Sequence record: NC_028927.1
Direction: 5' to 3' (one strand)
DNA length: 64,000 nucleotides
Origin: Escherichia phage slur02
Below the pieces are notes generated by a model that was given only the letters and a program-made list of their open reading frames with translations, did no database searches and was not told the origin of the DNA. Positions 824 through 61,738 of the stretch are shown piece after piece. The translations under genes and the position numbers were made by a program. Position 1 is the first letter of the stretch. The number at the start of each line of letters is the position of its first letter.

Positions 824-1149
824 TTAAACCATCCTTTAATACGTTGCCACAAAGTTTTCTGTTGAGCTTTGTTAACACCAATTGAGCGAATAACTGGTTG
901 AGATTCCTGGAATTCTTTATAATCAGCAAGGTAAATTTCGTAAGCTGCATCCGTAAATGAACTTATCGCCGCCATAAAATTATTGCGAATACCTACTGGA
1001 GCATCTTTACTTTCACGAATAATCATGTATTTACCAGTCTTAATCTTTACGATAGTTCCAAGATAAGCTCCATGGTACCAGATGTCCCACCCCTCTTGAG
1101 TGGGTTCTGCACAACGACGAAGTTCATTAACAATTTCTAACTTGTTCAT
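820..1149 (-). CDS. hypothetical protein (109 aa), immediately downstream of motA
   Basis: Track ORF; position corresponds to motA.1 of T4. Confidence 0.5.
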
Positions 1150-1829: not shown

Positions 1830-1872
1830 TAGTTGTATAGTACCACAGTATGCTTTGGTTGTAAACCGTTTT
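1830..1872 (-). promoter_or_regulatory. T4-type early promoter upstream of motA
   Basis: Minus strand AT-rich UP region, GTTTAC -35, 17-nt spacer, TACTAT -10. Confidence 0.6.
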
Positions 1873-1896
1873 GTGAAAAAAATTTTAAAATAAAAA

Positions 1897-14437: not shown

Positions 14438-14475
14438 AGTTATTTCTCACTTGTTAAAAAGATTTTATACTCCGC

Positions 14476-14517
14476 GGGACCATTATACTCTGGTCCCAAG
14501 AGTTTGTAAACTAGCTT
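14476..14517 (-). promoter_or_regulatory. early promoter upstream of motB-like gene
   Basis: GTTTAC, 17 nt, TATAAT; -10 lies in loop of inverted repeat GGGACC...GGTCCC. Confidence 0.55.
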
Positions 14518-27061: not shown

Positions 27062-27086
27062 AACAATCTCCTCATTTAACCAACAA

Positions 27087-27124
27087 GACTACTATACCAT
27101 AGTCTCGTCAGCTTGTAAACTAAA
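27087..27124 (-). promoter_or_regulatory. early promoter upstream of dmd
   Basis: GTTTAC, 17 nt, TATAGT; -10 within inverted repeat AGACTA...TAGTCT. Confidence 0.55.
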
Positions 27125-28547
27125 ATTTTAATTCATTCGCCAAAGCATCTAACTGAGCTCGAGTGGATTCATTTCTTTGATAGCGATTCTGCTCAGCCTG
27201 AATCTGTTGTGAACCTGCTACTTCACTCACTTCAGTTGGAGTAGAATCTTGTTCAATTTCTACCCATTTCTGATTTCCCTTTTGAACACCCATCAAAAAC
27301 TTATTCCACTTATTCTTATCGCCATATCGTGATTTGATTTGCTTAATGAGTTGTTGTTCAGCAGCTGCTAGCTCCTCAGTTTCAATGACCGCAAGCATAA
27401 AATCGGCTGTTGCTGGAAGACCAGCAGATTCTGCAATATCGCTCATGTTAACATCAGAAGAATCCCAAGCCTGTTTGCCGACCTGTGCTGCAGTCCAAAG
27501 AACAGTTTCGGTTTCAACAGCCAGAGCACGCAATTCCTCTGCAATAGCTTTAACAGTTGTGTAACTATTTTCTGAATAAACTCTAATGCGGCAAGATTTA
27601 CAAATACCTAGATAGTCGACAATAATGATTGTTGGAACAAAATTCTTTTTGAGCTTCAATTCATTCAAGAGAGACCTGAATGTATTAGCATCTGCTCCAC
27701 CAGTAGGATACTGTTTAACGATTAAACGACCAAGAGTAGATTTCTCACGCCATTTTTCCATTTTTCCTTTATACTCAGCGTAAGAAATATGCCCATCATC
27801 AATGTCATCAAGAGAAACATCAAGCATATTAGCATCAATACGTTTCGCACAGACTTCTTCAGCCATTTCCATGGAAATGTAAAGAACGTTATGACCAAGC
27901 TGCAAATAATCTGCTGCCAATGAACACAATCCTAATGACTTACCAACGTTAACGCCAGCCATTAAAACGTTCAGTGTTCCAGTCTCAGCTCCGCCTTTAG
28001 TAATTTTGTTTAGAATTCTGAGTTTAAATGGAACCTTACGAGCTTTATTCATATAAGATAGCCAACGCGCTTCATAGTCATCCATCCAATCATGACCAAC
28101 GTAGCTATCAAATGAAATTGATAATGCTTGGCGCATGATGTCAGGAATAGCACCAACATCCGGCATTTTCTTATTTCGTTTTTCCGGAGGAAGCTCAGCA
28201 TTAGTTTGAATTTCGATTATTTTAGACGTAGCATTAAACATCGCCCTTTGCTGAACATATTTTTCTGTTTCTTTTATTAACCAACTGTGGTCTTCCGGAG
28301 AATCAGCTAGTTTTGAAATAAGTGTTTTTACACCAGAATATTCTGTTTCAGTAAATGAACTATTTTCTAATGCAACATTTAACGCATTAATAGATGGAAC
28401 GCTATGATACTCATTAACATGAGATTTAATTAATTTGAATGTATTTTTAGCTGGACCACTTTCAAAATATTCTGAATCCATATATGGCCAAACTTTTGAA
28501 AAATAAGCTTGATCAAATATGAGATGAGAAAGAATAATTTCTACCAC
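27120..28547 (-). CDS. 41: gp41 replicative DNA helicase (DnaB-like)
   Basis: 475 aa; Walker A AGVNVGKS. Confidence 0.9.
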   Translation of the reverse strand: MVEIILSHLIFDQAYFSKVWPYMDSEYFESGPAKNTFKLIKSHVNEYHSVPSINALNVALENSSFTETEYSGVKTLISKLADSPEDHSWLIKETEKYVQQRAMFNATSKIIEIQTNAELPPEKRNKKMPDVGAIPDIMRQALSISFDSYVGHDWMDDYEARWLSYMNKARKVPFKLRILNKITKGGAETGTLNVLMAGVNVGKSLGLCSLAADYLQLGHNVLYISMEMAEEVCAKRIDANMLDVSLDDIDDGHISYAEYKGKMEKWREKSTLGRLIVKQYPTGGADANTFRSLLNELKLKKNFVPTIIIVDYLGICKSCRIRVYSENSYTTVKAIAEELRALAVETETVLWTAAQVGKQAWDSSDVNMSDIAESAGLPATADFMLAVIETEELAAAEQQLIKQIKSRYGDKNKWNKFLMGVQKGNQKWVEIEQDSTPTEVSEVAGSQQIQAEQNRYQRNESTRAQLDALANELKF

Positions 28548-28556
28548 ACTTACTCC

Positions 28557-28919
28557 TTAAAAGAATTTAAATTTTTTCTTTGACCTTTTATTAAATGCAT
28601 CTTGCAGTTGCATTGTAATACATTTTTCTACATGAGGAGCTAACTCAGCTTTTCTTTCTTGGTCAAGAACAGCAAAGTCCATTACAACCTTTCCATCAAC
28701 CCAATCCAGTTTTGTTACATACACTATATGTGTAGAACCGTCTTCTAGTTTAATGACAATCTCCTGGATAACATTTTCCATGGCAGATTTAATTATCTTA
28801 AGAGATTCATTAAAAAGACGTTCTTTTCTTTCTTCTTCCCCCTCCGAAGAGGGGGATTCATCGATAATTTCTAGATCTAAATCTAAATCATCTTTATTCA
28901 TTAAATTCTTCCATATCAC
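28557..28919 (-). CDS. 40: gp40-like protein (120 aa)
   Basis: Position between 41 and uvsX; acidic N-terminus; start may be an internal ATG. Confidence 0.6.
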   Translation of the reverse strand: MIWKNLMNKDDLDLDLEIIDESPSSEGEEERKERLFNESLKIIKSAMENVIQEIVIKLEDGSTHIVYVTKLDWVDGKVVMDFAVLDQERKAELAPHVEKCITMQLQDAFNKRSKKKFKFF

Positions 28920-30075
28920 TTAACTGTTCGAGGTCAGTTTCTAAATCAGCAGCTGATTTACTTTTACTTTCTGGAGATTTAAATTTTTCAACCTTTGAGT
29001 TAATCAATTCATCAACTTCAGCTTCAACAATTTCATTACTATCAATAGCACCTAACTGATAAGCACGTTTAATAGCATCTCGGAATGGTTGATGCTTAAA
29101 TAAAGGACCCCAGAATGTAGTGCAGTTGGTATCTTTTGCACGCCAAGATTTTTCTTCGCGAATCATCTCGCCGGTTTCTTCATCAAGAAATTCGCGAGCA
29201 TACCAGCCATTTTTTGGTTTTACTACAAATCCTAATTCTAGAGCCATATCTAACAATCCAGAATAAGGATCGATACCACCGTCAAATTTAACATCAATAA
29301 AGAATTTACTTTTTTCTTTAACGGTACGAGATTTTTCTACATTTAGAACAAATTGATACCCCTGAAGATCAGAACCATCTTTAATCTGGCGTTTACCGAT
29401 AATGAATACGGTATCAGCCGAATACATTACGCCTGTACCACCTGTCATCACGGTTTTACTAAACATTTCAATTGTTTCAATTGTATGGTTAACCGCAACA
29501 CATGGAATATTTTTAATGCTAAAATAAGGAGTAACAATACGGAATAATGACTTCAGTGATTTAGCACGAGTCATATCTGCCACAGATTTTTCATTCAAGG
29601 CATCTTCCGTTTCTTTCTTAGAAGCCATATTACCGATTGAGTCGATGAATACAATAACCTTTTCACCACGCTCAATAGCTTCAAGCTGATTCACCATGTC
29701 AATTTTCAGTTGTTCAACTGACTGGATTGGTGTATGAATTACTCGTTCCGGGTCAACTCCCATGGATCGCAAATAAGCTGGAGTAATACCAAATTCGCTA
29801 TCATAGAATAGACAAACCGCGTCAGGATATTTGTTCAAATATGCCGCAACCATAGTCAAAGACATATTTGATTTAAAGTGTTTAGAAGGCCCTGCGAAAA
29901 TAGTTAAACCAGACTGCATACCGCCATCAATCGCACCAGAAATAGCGATATTAAGCATTGGGATTTTTGTACGGATTACATCCTTTTCATTAAAGAATTT
30001 AGATGTAGTCAGTTCAGCAGTCATTTTAGAAGTGGAAGCTTTAATCAAACGGGATTTTAAATCTGCAATAGACAT
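28894..30075 (-). CDS. uvsX: UvsX recombinase (RecA-like)
   Basis: 393 aa; Walker A GPSKHFKS. Confidence 0.9.
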   Translation of the reverse strand: MSIADLKSRLIKASTSKMTAELTTSKFFNEKDVIRTKIPMLNIAISGAIDGGMQSGLTIFAGPSKHFKSNMSLTMVAAYLNKYPDAVCLFYDSEFGITPAYLRSMGVDPERVIHTPIQSVEQLKIDMVNQLEAIERGEKVIVFIDSIGNMASKKETEDALNEKSVADMTRAKSLKSLFRIVTPYFSIKNIPCVAVNHTIETIEMFSKTVMTGGTGVMYSADTVFIIGKRQIKDGSDLQGYQFVLNVEKSRTVKEKSKFFIDVKFDGGIDPYSGLLDMALELGFVVKPKNGWYAREFLDEETGEMIREEKSWRAKDTNCTTFWGPLFKHQPFRDAIKRAYQLGAIDSNEIVEAEVDELINSKVEKFKSPESKSKSAADLETDLEQLSDMEEFNE

Positions 30076-30128: not shown

Positions 30129-30154
30129 ATTATAACACAATAAATTTAGGCATT
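30129..30154 (-). promoter_or_regulatory. middle promoter candidate for uvsX
   Basis: ATGCCTAA box-like element about 11 nt upstream of TATAAT. Confidence 0.35.
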
Positions 30155-31001
30155 AATCAACTGCTATTGGATGAATAGCATTAAACTTATGAAATGCTTC
30201 TGATTTTTCTTTACGCGAAACACACATGCGAAGAACCTTTAGTGGTTCATCTTCTTCACCCAACGATTTTCGTTTTTCAATATTCGATGTTTTCCAACGA
30301 GCTTGCTCTGGAAACTCTCTATTGATTTGCTCAAGCGCTCTATTATGTTTAGAATTACTGCGAATTGAACTACATCCGCCAGGAGCTTGTGCTTTTCCAG
30401 ATACAACCAGATATTTGAACAAGGCCAAATGCGGATAACCTTGATTAATTAAATTGAGAAATGCATACATATCTTCGCATAAATCAATTTTTCCATACCC
30501 AATTTGTTCTGTCGTAAGTTTTCCGAGGTCATACCATGTATTCGTGAATCCATATGAATTTTCACGATAATTACCCCAAGATGAAGTAATTTTAAAAATA
30601 GGTAGACGAGCATGGCCATGATAATACCCGCAATCCATAGCATCCTCAACATATTGAATCAATTCATAGAACTGTTCACGAGTCAATTGATTAATTTTAT
30701 CTACACAACGACGATCATCTCTTTTTCGCATTGAACTCATACGAATAGTAGTATCATCGTCAATCATCCAAATTCGTTGACCTGCATACATATCAGTAAT
30801 TGCTTTACGAGTTCCAGCAATTCCATTTACATCATCAGGAATAGTTATAATTTTAGCTCTAGACCCATAGGCATCATAATAAGCTTTTTCTTCGTGTTCA
30901 CGTACTACAATATGTGGTTCATAATCAGTCGGAAACATATCAAGGGCAGAAACTGCCCCTACACGTTGATAGCTTGGAATTACGAATTGAATCATTTCCA
31001 C
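30153..31001 (-). CDS. putative GT-A-fold glycosyltransferase (candidate DNA glucosyltransferase)
   Basis: 282 aa; IPSYQR strand and IDDD (DxD) motif; occupies the beta-gt position between uvsX and 42. Confidence 0.5.
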   Translation of the reverse strand: MEMIQFVIPSYQRVGAVSALDMFPTDYEPHIVVREHEEKAYYDAYGSRAKIITIPDDVNGIAGTRKAITDMYAGQRIWMIDDDTTIRMSSMRKRDDRRCVDKINQLTREQFYELIQYVEDAMDCGYYHGHARLPIFKITSSWGNYRENSYGFTNTWYDLGKLTTEQIGYGKIDLCEDMYAFLNLINQGYPHLALFKYLVVSGKAQAPGGCSSIRSNSKHNRALEQINREFPEQARWKTSNIEKRKSLGEEDEPLKVLRMCVSRKEKSEAFHKFNAIHPIAVD

Positions 31002-31732
31002 TCACCGTTATAATCTTTTTTCACAATATGAGTTTCGCCAGTATTCCACCAATGATCAACCAAGTAAAAATGACGAGAATATACATGAAGACTTCCAACA
31101 TTCCATATAATAGAACCTGCTTTATACTGACGAGTTGAATCGCCTGCATTCAAATCAGATACTAATTTATCTAATACGTATTTTTGCCATGCATAATCAT
31201 TACGGAATCCGAAGACCACGTCATTTGAGCGCATGCTTACTACTGCATTGACTTTCTTATCACGAATCAGGTATTGTACTGTATTAGTACACATGAAATC
31301 TGACATGCCATCTTTATTGTAGTCAAATTGCATGGATGGACGAGTATAAATCATGATACCACGTCGAGAATCAGGGTTTTGACCAAGTTCAGCTAAACAC
31401 ATATCATACTGGGCATAGTTATCTTCTGACCAAATAGCCCAACCATAATTTGAGTTAATTTCACCTTTAGAAGATGCTACCTGCTGCCAAATCTTTGGTG
31501 TTTCACCTGGAATATCTTTAACAAACAAGCTTTTAGATTTATACCATTCAAGTTCACGCTGAATGTATTCATCATTAAGAGCGCCAAAAATAAACGGTTC
31601 ATCTGCTACAAATGATGCGCCAATAATTTCAATAGTTTTAACACCAGTTTTATCAACTACGAAATCTTTTTCTTTTAATGCAATCCCCAAATGAAGACGG
31701 ATTTCTTCAACTGTCATAGAGTCATTAATCAT
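30992..31732 (-). CDS. 42: gp42 dCMP hydroxymethylase
   Basis: 246 aa as in T4 gp42; thymidylate-synthase-like. Confidence 0.9.
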   Translation of the reverse strand: MINDSMTVEEIRLHLGIALKEKDFVVDKTGVKTIEIIGASFVADEPFIFGALNDEYIQRELEWYKSKSLFVKDIPGETPKIWQQVASSKGEINSNYGWAIWSEDNYAQYDMCLAELGQNPDSRRGIMIYTRPSMQFDYNKDGMSDFMCTNTVQYLIRDKKVNAVVSMRSNDVVFGFRNDYAWQKYVLDKLVSDLNAGDSTRQYKAGSIIWNVGSLHVYSRHFYLVDHWWNTGETHIVKKDYNGEWK

Positions 31733-37622: not shown

Positions 37623-37656
37623 AATTTCCTCATTCAAGTTTTAGTGTAAATTATAA

Positions 37657-39015: not shown

Positions 39016-39057
39016 AGAGATTATACTCTAATAAATTAAAGCATAATCTCTTATAAA

Positions 39058-46003: not shown

Positions 46004-46020
46004 AAGGGCCGAAGCCCTTA
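46004..46020 (-). terminator. UUCG-tetraloop terminator
   Basis: AGGGC-UUCG-GCCCUUUUUGG. Confidence 0.6.
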
Positions 46021-47918: not shown

Positions 47919-48389
47919 TTAATCATGTTTCCACACCCCATCGGTATTTGACCAAAGTCGCTGATTATCTGATCCTCGCCACAGCTTTTTAGTCGGAAGA
48001 TTTTTCTCATACTTCCCATCAATAATAACATCAACATATTTAAGCATTTCTAGTTGTTTAATATCTTCAAACTTATATCCTGTCCACAACCAAATGCTTT
48101 TATTGGGATAAAGATTTTTTACTGTTTGAACCACAGAGTGAATCACATCTCTGTTATCAGGATAAAGAGGGTCACCCCCAGTTATAGTTAATCCTTCTAT
48201 ATAATCATTATTCAAACATTCAATTAATTGTTCTAGTGTTTCACCAGTGAATGGAACACCATTTCTAGCATTCCATGTTGATTTATTATAACACCCTTCG
48301 CATTTATGCAAACAACCCGTAACGAAAAGAACGACCCTGCAACCAGGGCCATTCACAAAATCGCAAGGATAAAATCTATCATAATTCAT
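47919..48389 (-). CDS. nrdG: NrdG, anaerobic ribonucleotide reductase activating enzyme (radical SAM)
   Basis: 156 aa; cysteine cluster CLHKCEGC. Confidence 0.9.
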   Translation of the reverse strand: MNYDRFYPCDFVNGPGCRVVLFVTGCLHKCEGCYNKSTWNARNGVPFTGETLEQLIECLNNDYIEGLTITGGDPLYPDNRDVIHSVVQTVKNLYPNKSIWLWTGYKFEDIKQLEMLKYVDVIIDGKYEKNLPTKKLWRGSDNQRLWSNTDGVWKHD

Positions 48390-50203
48390 TGGTGTTTAAC
48401 CCTATGCATGATTTCTTTATTTTTACCGAGATTAAATCCGCGTTCGTTCGGATTTCCCAAATAACCACATGTTCTTCTTATTGTGTTCATCTTTTTAGGA
48501 TCAGTTTCTCCACAGATAGAACAAACAAATCCGTTTTCAGTAGGAGTCATTTCATGGGTACTTCCGCATGTAAAACATTTATCTACTGGCATATTAACAC
48601 CAAAATAATCTAAATGTTGTGCAGCATAATCCCAGACGGCCTCAAGCCCCTTTAAATTGTTTTTCATATCAGGAAGTTCAACATAAGAAATGTGACCACC
48701 TGTCGCAATGAAATGATATGGCGCTTCACGAGAAATCTTTTCAAACGGAGTAATATTTTCTTCTACTGAAACATGGAAACTGTTAGTGTACCAGCCTTTA
48801 TCGGTAACATCCTTTACATTTCCGTATTTTTCTGTATCGAGTTTACAGAAGCGATAACAAAGGTTTTCAGCAGGAGTAGAATATAAACTAAAAGCAAATC
48901 CGGTTCTTTCAGTCCACTGTTTAAGATGAGCATTCATTTTAGTTAAAATTTCTCGTCCAATATCACGACCGACAAGAATATTCAATTCGTGAATACCAAT
49001 GTATCCTAAAGACACTGAACTTCTACCGTTTTTAAATAACTCAATTATGTCGTCATCAGGTTTAAGACGAACCCCGAATGCACCTTCTTGGTAAAGAATA
49101 GGAGCAACAGTTGCTTTAACTCCTTTTAAGGAACTAATTCTACACATCAAAGCTTCAAAACATAAATCCATTCGTTCATTGAACAATTCGATAAATTTCT
49201 GTTCATTGAACTGTGTTCCAATATAAGAATCTAATGCGATACGAGGAAGATTCAGTGTTACAACACCGAGATTATTACGTCCATCAAGAATTTCATTGCC
49301 AGTCGAATCTTTCCATACGCCCAAGAAACTACGGCAACCCATTGGAGAAACAGGAACAGATGAACCAGTGATAGCTTTATTATTCTTAGCTGAAATAATA
49401 TCAGGATACATCCTTTTGCTTGCGCACTCTAGAGCAAGTTGCTTAATGTCGTAATTCGGATCGTCTTTATAAAGATTAACGCCTTCTTCAACGAACATAA
49501 CAAGCTTAGGGAAAATAGGAGTTATTCCATCACGACCAAGACCTTTAATACGATTTTTCAGAATTGCTTTCTGAATCATTCGTTCAGTCCAGTCAGTTCC
49601 CGTACCAAATGTAATTGTTACAAAAGGAGTTTGTCCGTTTGAACTAAAGAGAGTATTTACTTCATATTCATAAGCTTGGAATGCATCGTATACGTCTTTT
49701 TCTGTTTTAGATTGAGCATAATTCAGTGCATCGGCGATTTGCCATTTTTCTGCATCCTCAATATGTTTTGCATAGGTGCGTTTAACATAAGGAGAAAGTA
49801 CTTTATCTACATTCGCAAAAGTCGTTCCGCCGTATTGGTGAGAAGCAACCTGTGCAGTAATTTGTGCCATAATTGCAGTAGCAACTCCAATTGATTTAGG
49901 AGTTTCAATCTGTGCATTACCAAGCTTAAATCCGTTCTCAAGCATTCCTTTTAAATCTACTAAACAGCAATTAGTAAATGGAAGAGCAGGGGAATAATCA
50001 ATATCATGGAAATGAATAATTCCGCTTTCATGCGCTTTCATAATAAAAGACGGGACCATATTTTTGGCAATGTGTTTAGACACAATACCAGCCATAAGGT
50101 CCCGTTGAGTTGGAAAAACACGAGAATCTTTATTAGCATTCTCGTTTAAAAGGTCTTTATTAGTTTTATGAATCAATCCTTCAATTTCTTTTTCAATTGT
50201 CAT
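48386..50203 (-). CDS. nrdD: NrdD, anaerobic ribonucleotide reductase, intron-less
   Basis: 605 aa continuous ORF; C-terminal glycyl-radical motif RTCGYLG and zinc cysteines. Confidence 0.95.
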   Translation of the reverse strand: MTIEKEIEGLIHKTNKDLLNENANKDSRVFPTQRDLMAGIVSKHIAKNMVPSFIMKAHESGIIHFHDIDYSPALPFTNCCLVDLKGMLENGFKLGNAQIETPKSIGVATAIMAQITAQVASHQYGGTTFANVDKVLSPYVKRTYAKHIEDAEKWQIADALNYAQSKTEKDVYDAFQAYEYEVNTLFSSNGQTPFVTITFGTGTDWTERMIQKAILKNRIKGLGRDGITPIFPKLVMFVEEGVNLYKDDPNYDIKQLALECASKRMYPDIISAKNNKAITGSSVPVSPMGCRSFLGVWKDSTGNEILDGRNNLGVVTLNLPRIALDSYIGTQFNEQKFIELFNERMDLCFEALMCRISSLKGVKATVAPILYQEGAFGVRLKPDDDIIELFKNGRSSVSLGYIGIHELNILVGRDIGREILTKMNAHLKQWTERTGFAFSLYSTPAENLCYRFCKLDTEKYGNVKDVTDKGWYTNSFHVSVEENITPFEKISREAPYHFIATGGHISYVELPDMKNNLKGLEAVWDYAAQHLDYFGVNMPVDKCFTCGSTHEMTPTENGFVCSICGETDPKKMNTIRRTCGYLGNPNERGFNLGKNKEIMHRVKHQ

Positions 50204-61572: not shown

Positions 61573-61701
61573 TACATACTCCTCTGAATCATATCAATAA
61601 TGTTGTTTACCAGATTATAAGTAAACATTGGGTAATTATATTGAATCATCACATACACAACAAACAAAACTTTCATTCTCTTCTCCTTGGCAGTTGACAA
61701 G

Positions 61702-61738
61702 ATTACTATACCATAACCTTGCCAACTTGTAAACCATT
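61702..61738 (-). promoter_or_regulatory. early promoter upstream of paralog pair, membrane protein and NTase genes
   Basis: GTTTAC, 17 nt, TATAGT. Confidence 0.5.

Follow-up and report, generated by a model that had tools for sequence, protein, structure and literature searches.

A conserved RNA hairpin inside gene 40 of Escherichia phage slur02, selected as RNA and probably serving the 3' end of uvsX

Introduction

Why should a very stable RNA hairpin be kept inside the coding sequence of one phage gene, a short distance after the stop codon of the gene that precedes it? The question is raised by the uvsX-40 junction of Escherichia phage slur02 (NC_028927.1), from which a stretch of 64,000 nucleotides, here called the window, was analysed. 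The junction lies upstream of the helicase gene 41. The phage requires much more UvsX than gp41 helicase, though the two can be co-transcribed. A first-pass annotation, made from the sequence alone, had placed a stable UUCG hairpin at 28838-28855 and held it more likely to act in the stability or processing of RNA at the uvsX 3' end, or as a translational pause site, than as a terminator. Here we describe the fold, its conservation and the selection that maintains it, and we weigh the roles that it may have.

Results

Gene Context and Fold

The region is 100% identical to that of Escherichia phage slur04 and 98.6% identical to that of T4, and the window belongs to a Tequatrovirus. The order uvsX-40-41 is that of the annotated T4 record. 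All three genes are on the minus strand: uvsX, coding for the RecA-like recombinase (28894..30075, stop TAA at 28896..28894; from the open reading frame [ORF] list and the T4 and slur04 annotations), gene 40, coding for the head vertex assembly chaperone (28557..28901; from the ORF list, the T4 annotation, and the gp40 alignment), and gene 41, coding for the replicative helicase (27120..28547, with a GTG start at 28547; from the ORF list and the T4 annotation). The gene 40 ATG (28901..28899) overlaps the uvsX stop codon (ATGAATAA) and matches the start annotated in T4; the listed ORF 28557..28919 has the same frame and begins at a GTG farther upstream. In Tevenvirinae gene 40 overlaps the uvsX stop, which is why the hairpin is translated as part of gene 40. 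It starts 38 nt downstream of the uvsX stop, close to the 40 nt estimated initially, and occupies codons 16-22 of gene 40, which encode the peptide SPSSEGE.

The minus strand from 28856 to 28837 reads U-CCCCCUC-UUCG-GAGGGGG-A, with the 5' arm at 28856..28849, the UUCG loop at 28848..28845, and the 3' arm at 28844..28837. It is flanked by gaa(T) on the 5' side and (A)agaag on the 3' side, and GAUGAA lies upstream in the RNA. The core (28838..28855) has 7 bp, as announced in the first-pass annotation; its "G-C-rich pairs" are more precisely six G-C pairs and one U-A pair, and an additional flanking U-A pair extends the stem to 8 bp. A C-G pair closes the loop, and the stem pairs are all Watson-Crick. 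When the 18-mer is folded as RNA its energy is -14.0 kcal/mol and 95% of the ensemble adopts this structure; in a 36-nt context the energy is -16.7 kcal/mol, and the hairpin also forms in a 101-nt context. Sequence and fold energy thus bear out the claim of a stable UUCG hairpin at this place. The reported absence of a U-tract is equally correct, as there is no U in the 9 nt that follow the stem (tail AGAAGAAAG). The hairpin was not flagged in a terminator-like scan of the window, and an Rfam E-value scan of 28500..29100 returned only sub-threshold matches, the best overlapping ones scoring 16.7-18.8 bits against gathering values of 60-94.

Among eight Tequatrovirus sequences (the window, T4, and six others) the hairpin is invariant, and in-frame indels of 3 or 6 nt occur on both sides of the stem and none within it, variation within the genus being too low to be informative alone. 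The gene 40 N-terminus 5' of the hairpin (28857..28901, minus strand) is a GAU-UUA (Asp-Leu) repeat whose 6-nt units are gained and lost among Tequatrovirus. Directly 3' of the hairpin there is a run of GAA, from which one codon is lost in phage Kha5h.

UUCG Hairpins across the Window

The minus strand, which holds almost all the long ORFs of the window, contains 11 UUCG-loop hairpins with stems of at least 6 bp, ten of them with at least 7 bp; the plus strand contains none. First-order Markov simulations give an expectation of 0.31 hairpins of at least 7 bp per strand, with a maximum of 3 in 300 runs, and the contrast between 10 observed and 0.31 expected argues against a chance palindrome. 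Most of the other strong UUCG hairpins lie directly after stop codons or between ORFs, and the one at the uvsX-40 junction is the only strong one that is wholly within an ORF. In T4, C(UUCG)G hairpins are described as abundant and predominantly intergenic in PMC4371310 and in PMC8948821, the latter citing Tuerk et al. 1988 (PNAS 85:1364). The slur02 hairpin resembles this class in its C-G-closed UUCG loop, its G+C-rich stem, and its location on the transcribed strand, where it is one of 10-11 in the window. It differs in position: the class is predominantly, though not exclusively, intergenic, whereas this hairpin is inside gene 40.

Some of the window's hairpins share sequence. Three separate intercistronic UUCG hairpins, at 46004, 42365, and 6589 on the minus strand, are built around one exact 16-mer, AAGGGCTTCGGCCCTT (core AAGGGCUUCGGCCCUU), and there is a near copy at 37653. 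This recurrence could reflect either convergence or a repeated module.

Other hairpins in the window deserve mention in their own right. A gene 42-like ORF (30992..31732) is followed, 24 nt past its stop, by the hairpin AACGUGUAGGGGCAGUUUCUGCCCUUGAUAUGUU at 30934..30967 (minus strand; -17.4 kcal/mol), which falls within the first ~20 codons of the overlapping ORF 30153..30995. This layout is identical to that of uvsX/40; the terminator-like scan flagged the hairpin. A 605-aa ORF (48386..50203), probably gene 39, has its stop 31 nt before the hairpin GAAUGGCCCUGGUUGCAGGGUCGUUC at 48329..48354 (minus strand; -18.7 kcal/mol, with the tail UUUUCG), which is inside ORF 47919..48389. The sense-strand hairpin at 1079..1109 is a weaker example of this layout. 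Finally, four long minus-strand hairpins of -17 to -19 kcal/mol (27079..27112, 61692..61727, 14469..14503, and 39016..39051) carry a -10-like hexamer in the loop (GGUAUAGUA, GAGUAUAAU). The one at 27079..27112 follows the gene 41 stop by 7 nt, at a place where there is also a promoter-like match, TTTACA-17-TATAGT. Promoters and hairpins may thus overlap at gene boundaries.

Conservation and Turnover of the Stem

The junction was compared in twelve annotated phages, covering Tequatrovirus, Mosigvirus, Karamvirus, Gelderlandvirus, Gaprivervirus, Dhakavirus, Marfavirus, Krischvirus, Pseudotevenvirus, the unclassified Klebsiella phage Roth66, and T4-like phages of Acinetobacter and Aeromonas, and in 80 IMG/VR loci gathered with an alignment of the UvsX C-terminus, 53 of which are distinct. 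Each locus was represented by its most stable 36-nt fold from -30 to +170 relative to the uvsX stop, and other 200-nt segments of the same loci served as controls. The median fold energy after uvsX is -15.6 kcal/mol in the 53 distinct loci and -9.6 kcal/mol in 617 control segments. Folds of -14 kcal/mol or stronger are found in 75% of the distinct loci versus 6.8% of the controls (Mann-Whitney p = 7.5e-25). Lack of conservation in relatives, which the first-pass annotation had named together with absent transcript 3' ends as a refuting outcome, is hence the opposite of what is found. The element is nevertheless not universal among T4-like phages, since the strongest fold within 170 nt after uvsX reaches only -5 to -9 kcal/mol in Acinetobacter phage AbTZA1 (L009) and in three other loci (L077, L082, and L083).

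The position is conserved and the sequence is not. About 50 distinct T4-like lineages have a strong hairpin behind uvsX, and at least 12 unrelated stem sequences occur among them. T4, Karamvirus, and Gelderlandvirus have CCCCCUC and GAGGGGG around a UUCG or UCAG loop, and Mosigvirus has CCCCUUC and GAAGGGG around UUCG or UUUG. Roth66-type phages have UCUCCCUC and GAGGGAGA around GGAA, Marfa has GCUCCCCUU and AAGGGGAGU around GAAG, and Erwinia phage Cronus has UUCCUCCCC and GGGGAGGAG around UUCG. The arms are GGAAUCCUC and GAGGAUUCC in Serratia phage CHI14 (loop UGAU), CUGGCUGGG and CUCAGCCAG in Serratia phage Muldoon (loop GAAA), GAGGCUCC and GGAGCUUC in Yersinia phage fHe-Yen9-01 (loop GAAA), and GCGGAGGGAGC and GCUCCUUCUGU in Gaprivervirus (loop UAAG). 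In Dhakavirus the arms are swapped, as GAGGGUC-CUAGU-GACCCUC and also as GAGGGCC with GGCCCUC. The encoded peptides vary with the stems (PS..EG, EG..PS, LAG..QPV, EAP..GAS, and EES..EDS), as one would expect if two complementary arms dictate the codons. The gene-40-internal hairpins, in 27 distinct sequences, lie at about codons 13-28 and 31-61 nt after the uvsX stop (median 43), and each of these sequences has a gene 40 ATG that overlaps the uvsX stop or directly adjoins it.

Selection on the RNA

Since the hairpin is translated, it might be thought a by-product of the peptide. This can be assessed from codon usage. In the 46 long ORFs of the window, CCC makes up 1.8% of Pro codons, TCC 4.6% and TCG 4.8% of Ser codons, GGG 6.5% of Gly codons, and GAG 15% of Glu codons; the hairpin is built from the rarest codons of each synonymous set. 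Given the peptide ESPSSEGE, the joint probability of its eight codons is ~1e-7. When codons 2-34 were recoded synonymously with weights following codon usage, none of 1,000 recodings reached -16.7 kcal/mol, the null distribution being -8.0 +/- 2.2 kcal/mol. The same holds in 17 other lineages with a gene-40-internal hairpin, in which at most 11 of 200 recodings fold as well (0-2 of 200 in 13 lineages); the native sequence beats at least 94% of its own synonymous recodings in 17 of the 17 lineages tested.

Comparative evidence points in the same direction. Ten PS..EG-type sequences were aligned without gaps in codon register; compensatory double changes affect 4 of the 7 core pairs, and every core cell remains paired. 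These changes were made largely by synonymous substitutions, and the pattern was matched by none of 500 shuffles and by no slid register. Several lineages have G-U pairs on the sense strand, and because several stems contain such pairs the sense fold is far stronger than the antisense fold (-19.2 versus -8.8 and -13.0 versus -8.2 kcal/mol). The hairpin is therefore a selected sense-strand RNA structure. The first-pass annotation had named synonymous-site conservation in relatives as a check, and both the recoding nulls and the compensatory synonymous changes answer it in favor of selection at the RNA level.

The alternative, that the hairpin is a by-product of a PSxEGE peptide motif, arose by chance as a palindrome, or acts at the DNA level (for instance as a cruciform or a protein-binding site), is strongly disfavoured, and we regard it as very improbable. 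It could draw on the recurrence of an xPSxEGE motif in several genera and on the near-perfect palindrome in the DNA. Yet the same peptides, once recoded synonymously, almost never fold as well, either for slur02 itself or for the 17 lineages, and the peptide by-product was rejected on this ground; the hairpin is moreover kept in lineages with unrelated peptides, some of them arm-swapped, and its compensatory changes run through synonymous substitutions. Against a DNA-level or antisense element stand the UUCG loops and G-U pairs, which are specific to the sense strand, and the asymmetry between strands.

The Hairpin Follows the uvsX Stop

In the gp40 alignment, phages of the RB43, RB49, and Aeromonas types have a short protein without the first ~30 residues, the part whose codons contain the hairpin. 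In these phages (RB43-like, RB49-like, Aeromonas ZPAH1, and several IMG/VR lineages) a G+C-rich hairpin is found instead in the spacer between uvsX and gene 40. In 12 of 13 such loci, 2-11 nt separate it from the uvsX stop that precedes it, and 25-70 nt from the gene 40 ATG that follows. These spacer hairpins often have a CUUCGG loop and in a few lineages a U-rich tail. The thirteenth locus, L021, is a misclassified gene-40-internal hairpin, through a probable sequencing frameshift.

Compared with its near-twin L018, the L021 sequence (1851..1879, IMG/VR UViG 2974573174) has one C fewer in the C-run of the 5' arm, which leaves a stem of 6 bp and a broken gene 40 frame. The missing C is most likely a homopolymer sequencing error.

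A gene 40 start downstream of the hairpin was also considered and rejected: no start codon lies in frame between the hairpin and the conserved core, and in every lineage but L021 the reading continues open through the internal hairpin.

The position of the hairpin is thus fixed relative to the uvsX stop but not relative to the gene 40 start, which argues for a role at the uvsX 3' end and against a pause for gp40 as the primary one. Comparison of the two layouts suggests that the N-terminal extension of gene 40 may have grown over a pre-existing hairpin.

The Corresponding Site in T4

The slur02 element is already known from T4, where the hairpin is base-for-base identical, lies 38 nt after the uvsX stop inside gene 40, and has the same gene order around it; only the host phage differs, here a slur04-like Tequatrovirus. 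The Fig. 5B legend of Kim et al. 2025 (Hinton laboratory) places an in vivo RNA 3' end directly downstream of a stem-loop, within the 358 nt that precede T4 gene 41, and the reporter used in that work includes these 358 nt (PMC12152347). Within this T4 stretch the hairpin is by far the strongest fold, at -16.7 kcal/mol versus -8.2 and -7.8 kcal/mol for the next best. As it is the only strong local fold in those 358 nt, we infer that it is the published stem-loop. Transferred to slur02 from that figure legend, the RNA 3' ends would be expected directly 3' of the stem, at 28825..28836 on the minus strand.

The same paper, citing Hinton 1989 (J Biol Chem 264:14432 and 14440), attributes the low gp41 of Escherichia coli rho mutants to low gene 41 mRNA, and it reports that the gene 41 RNA level depends on read-through past the 3'-end site (PMC12152347). 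GoF(D25Y) restores RNA extending into gene 41, and it does so post-transcriptionally, with a longer RNA half-life (PMC12152347). According to a 2010 review by Hinton, the early view was one of more Rho termination, and the later view is one of nuclease-sensitive RNAs that need protection (PMC2988021). A literature search found no T4 Term-seq or long-read 3'-end maps; uvsX, gp40, and gp41 are not mentioned in a T4 omics paper, and the site is not discussed in the review by Uzan and Miller.

Discussion

A Probable uvsX 3'-End Element

That the structure is present, is selected, and tracks the uvsX stop follows from the data above. We consider it probable, at about 60%, that the hairpin is a 3'-end element of uvsX, acting as a barrier to 3' exonucleases and perhaps also as a weak factor-dependent terminator, which keeps uvsX RNA above 40-41 RNA. 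The exonuclease-barrier mechanism and the setting of the RNA ratio are what we infer. Once RNA polymerase has passed, the C(UUCG)G-capped stem would fold at a distance of 38 nt from the uvsX stop, where a ribosome terminating on uvsX does not cover it. RNA reaching into 40-41 would be unstable and would be cut or terminated further downstream; 3'-to-5' trimming would then proceed until the exonucleases stall at the stem, and the product would be a stable uvsX transcript ending just past the hairpin. A fraction of the polymerases may also stop at the hairpin with the help of host factors. Genes 40 and 41 would be carried only by RNA that was read through and left untrimmed, hence a high ratio of uvsX to 40/41 RNA. 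The SPSSEGE peptide would be a by-product of the complementary arms.

The in vivo 3' end agrees with this reading, as do the absence of a U-tract and the post-transcriptional way in which GoF(D25Y) and Rop act. As in stabiliser hairpins, a stable stem-loop is found past the stop codon and, at 38 nt, beyond the footprint of the terminating ribosome. The T4 literature and the position after the uvsX stop across phages hence support the role first suggested, in stability or processing at the uvsX 3' end. The REP elements of E. coli malEFG are 3' stem-loops that block 3'-5' exonucleases and bring differential stability within a polycistronic mRNA. The hairpin resembles such exonuclease-blocking stem-loops in being stable, in following an abundantly needed cistron, in having a 3' end reported just after it, and in having less RNA downstream. 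It differs in lying in a translated region, while theirs are in untranslated spacers, and the barrier is here a proposed one. Repeated melting by gene 40 ribosomes would weaken a pure barrier role.

Termination, Pausing, and Recoding

The hairpin might be a partial, factor-dependent terminator or attenuator, at which polymerase pauses or is released with Rho, NusA, or NusG despite the missing U-tract, and at which a ribosome re-initiating at the gene 40 AUG, close behind polymerase, would prevent folding, so that read-through into 40-41 would need translational coupling. Termination and antitermination were the first published interpretation of the T4 site, and more RNA ends there in a rho mutant (PMC12152347, PMC2988021); some orthologous intergenic hairpins have U-rich tails (L039, L044, L062, and L069), and the gene 40 AUG that coupling would use overlaps or abuts the uvsX stop in the lineages with an internal hairpin. 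Like an intrinsic terminator, the structure is a G+C-rich hairpin shortly after a gene end (six G-C among 7-8 pairs, -14 to -16.7 kcal/mol), and it shares with that class the U-rich tails of a few orthologs in other T4-like lineages; unlike one, it has itself no U-tract and escapes the terminator scan. Nor is a rut-like site evident, since the flanks are poor in C and have more G than C (16 G against 7 C over the 84 nt upstream, and 15 G against 9 C over the 80 nt downstream). Furthermore, later work found that termination is no more efficient with the mutant Rho proteins, that growth is rescued by Rop, an unrelated protein that binds RNA, and that GoF(D25Y) stabilizes the RNA (PMC12152347, PMC2988021). 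Termination as the main role therefore seems rather unlikely to us. The first-pass preference against a terminator agrees with the missing U-tract and the negative scan, though partial or factor-dependent termination may still contribute.

A translational pause or throttle for gene 40, the other role first suggested, is improbable as the primary one. The stem and its rare codons would slow ribosomes, lowering gp40 output or aiding the folding or membrane targeting of the nascent chain, and it is true that the hairpin is translated, that it is made of the rarest codons, and that the frame through it stays open, L021 being the one exception. But a pause serving gp40 would be tied to the gene 40 start, and this position is not conserved: the hairpin occupies codons ~13-28 in Tevenvirinae and lies 25-70 nt upstream of the ATG in RB43-like, RB49-like, and other phages, where the N-terminal ~30 residues are absent altogether. 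A programmed frameshift or bypass signal was likewise rejected, as there is no X XXY YYZ slippery heptamer upstream and both other frames close within ~25 codons, which makes recoding unlikely. The bypass stem-loop of T4 gene 60 is similar in that a tetraloop caps it, that it lies inside a T4 reading frame, and that it interacts with ribosomes; the uvsX/40 hairpin, however, has no take-off and landing codons, in-frame stop, or slippery site, and its frame runs straight through and is conserved.

Evolution of the Element

A wider account of the uvsX 3'-end element can be put forward tentatively, though the odds are somewhat against it. The RNA hairpin, and not the peptide, would be the conserved unit: an ancestral intergenic structure at the uvsX 3' end that was overprinted by the extension of gene 40, and whose stem has been replaced often (at least 12 unrelated stems, some arm-swapped), each replacement imposing a new palindromic peptide on gp40. 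Because gene 40 ribosomes must melt the stem, a translation-sensitive switch is conceivable, in which ribosome traffic from uvsX into gene 40 would set uvsX 3'-end formation against RNA continuing into the helicase gene 41. The cross-genus pattern, with a hairpin kept after uvsX across Straboviridae through stem turnover and dictating the gp40 peptide, may be new; no paper describing it was found in a search that covered little of the older T4 literature.

In conclusion, a hairpin that fixes and protects the uvsX 3' end would explain how one transcription unit gives unequal outputs, and its site is at the center of the long-unresolved rho(nusD)/goF phenotype of T4. For annotation, a strong hairpin within the opening codons of an overlapping T4-type gene can be a signal for the 3' end of the gene before it. 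The comparative result is a clean natural case of an RNA structure constraining a coding sequence, and it provides natural stem variants with which the rho(nusD)/goF phenotype can be tested.
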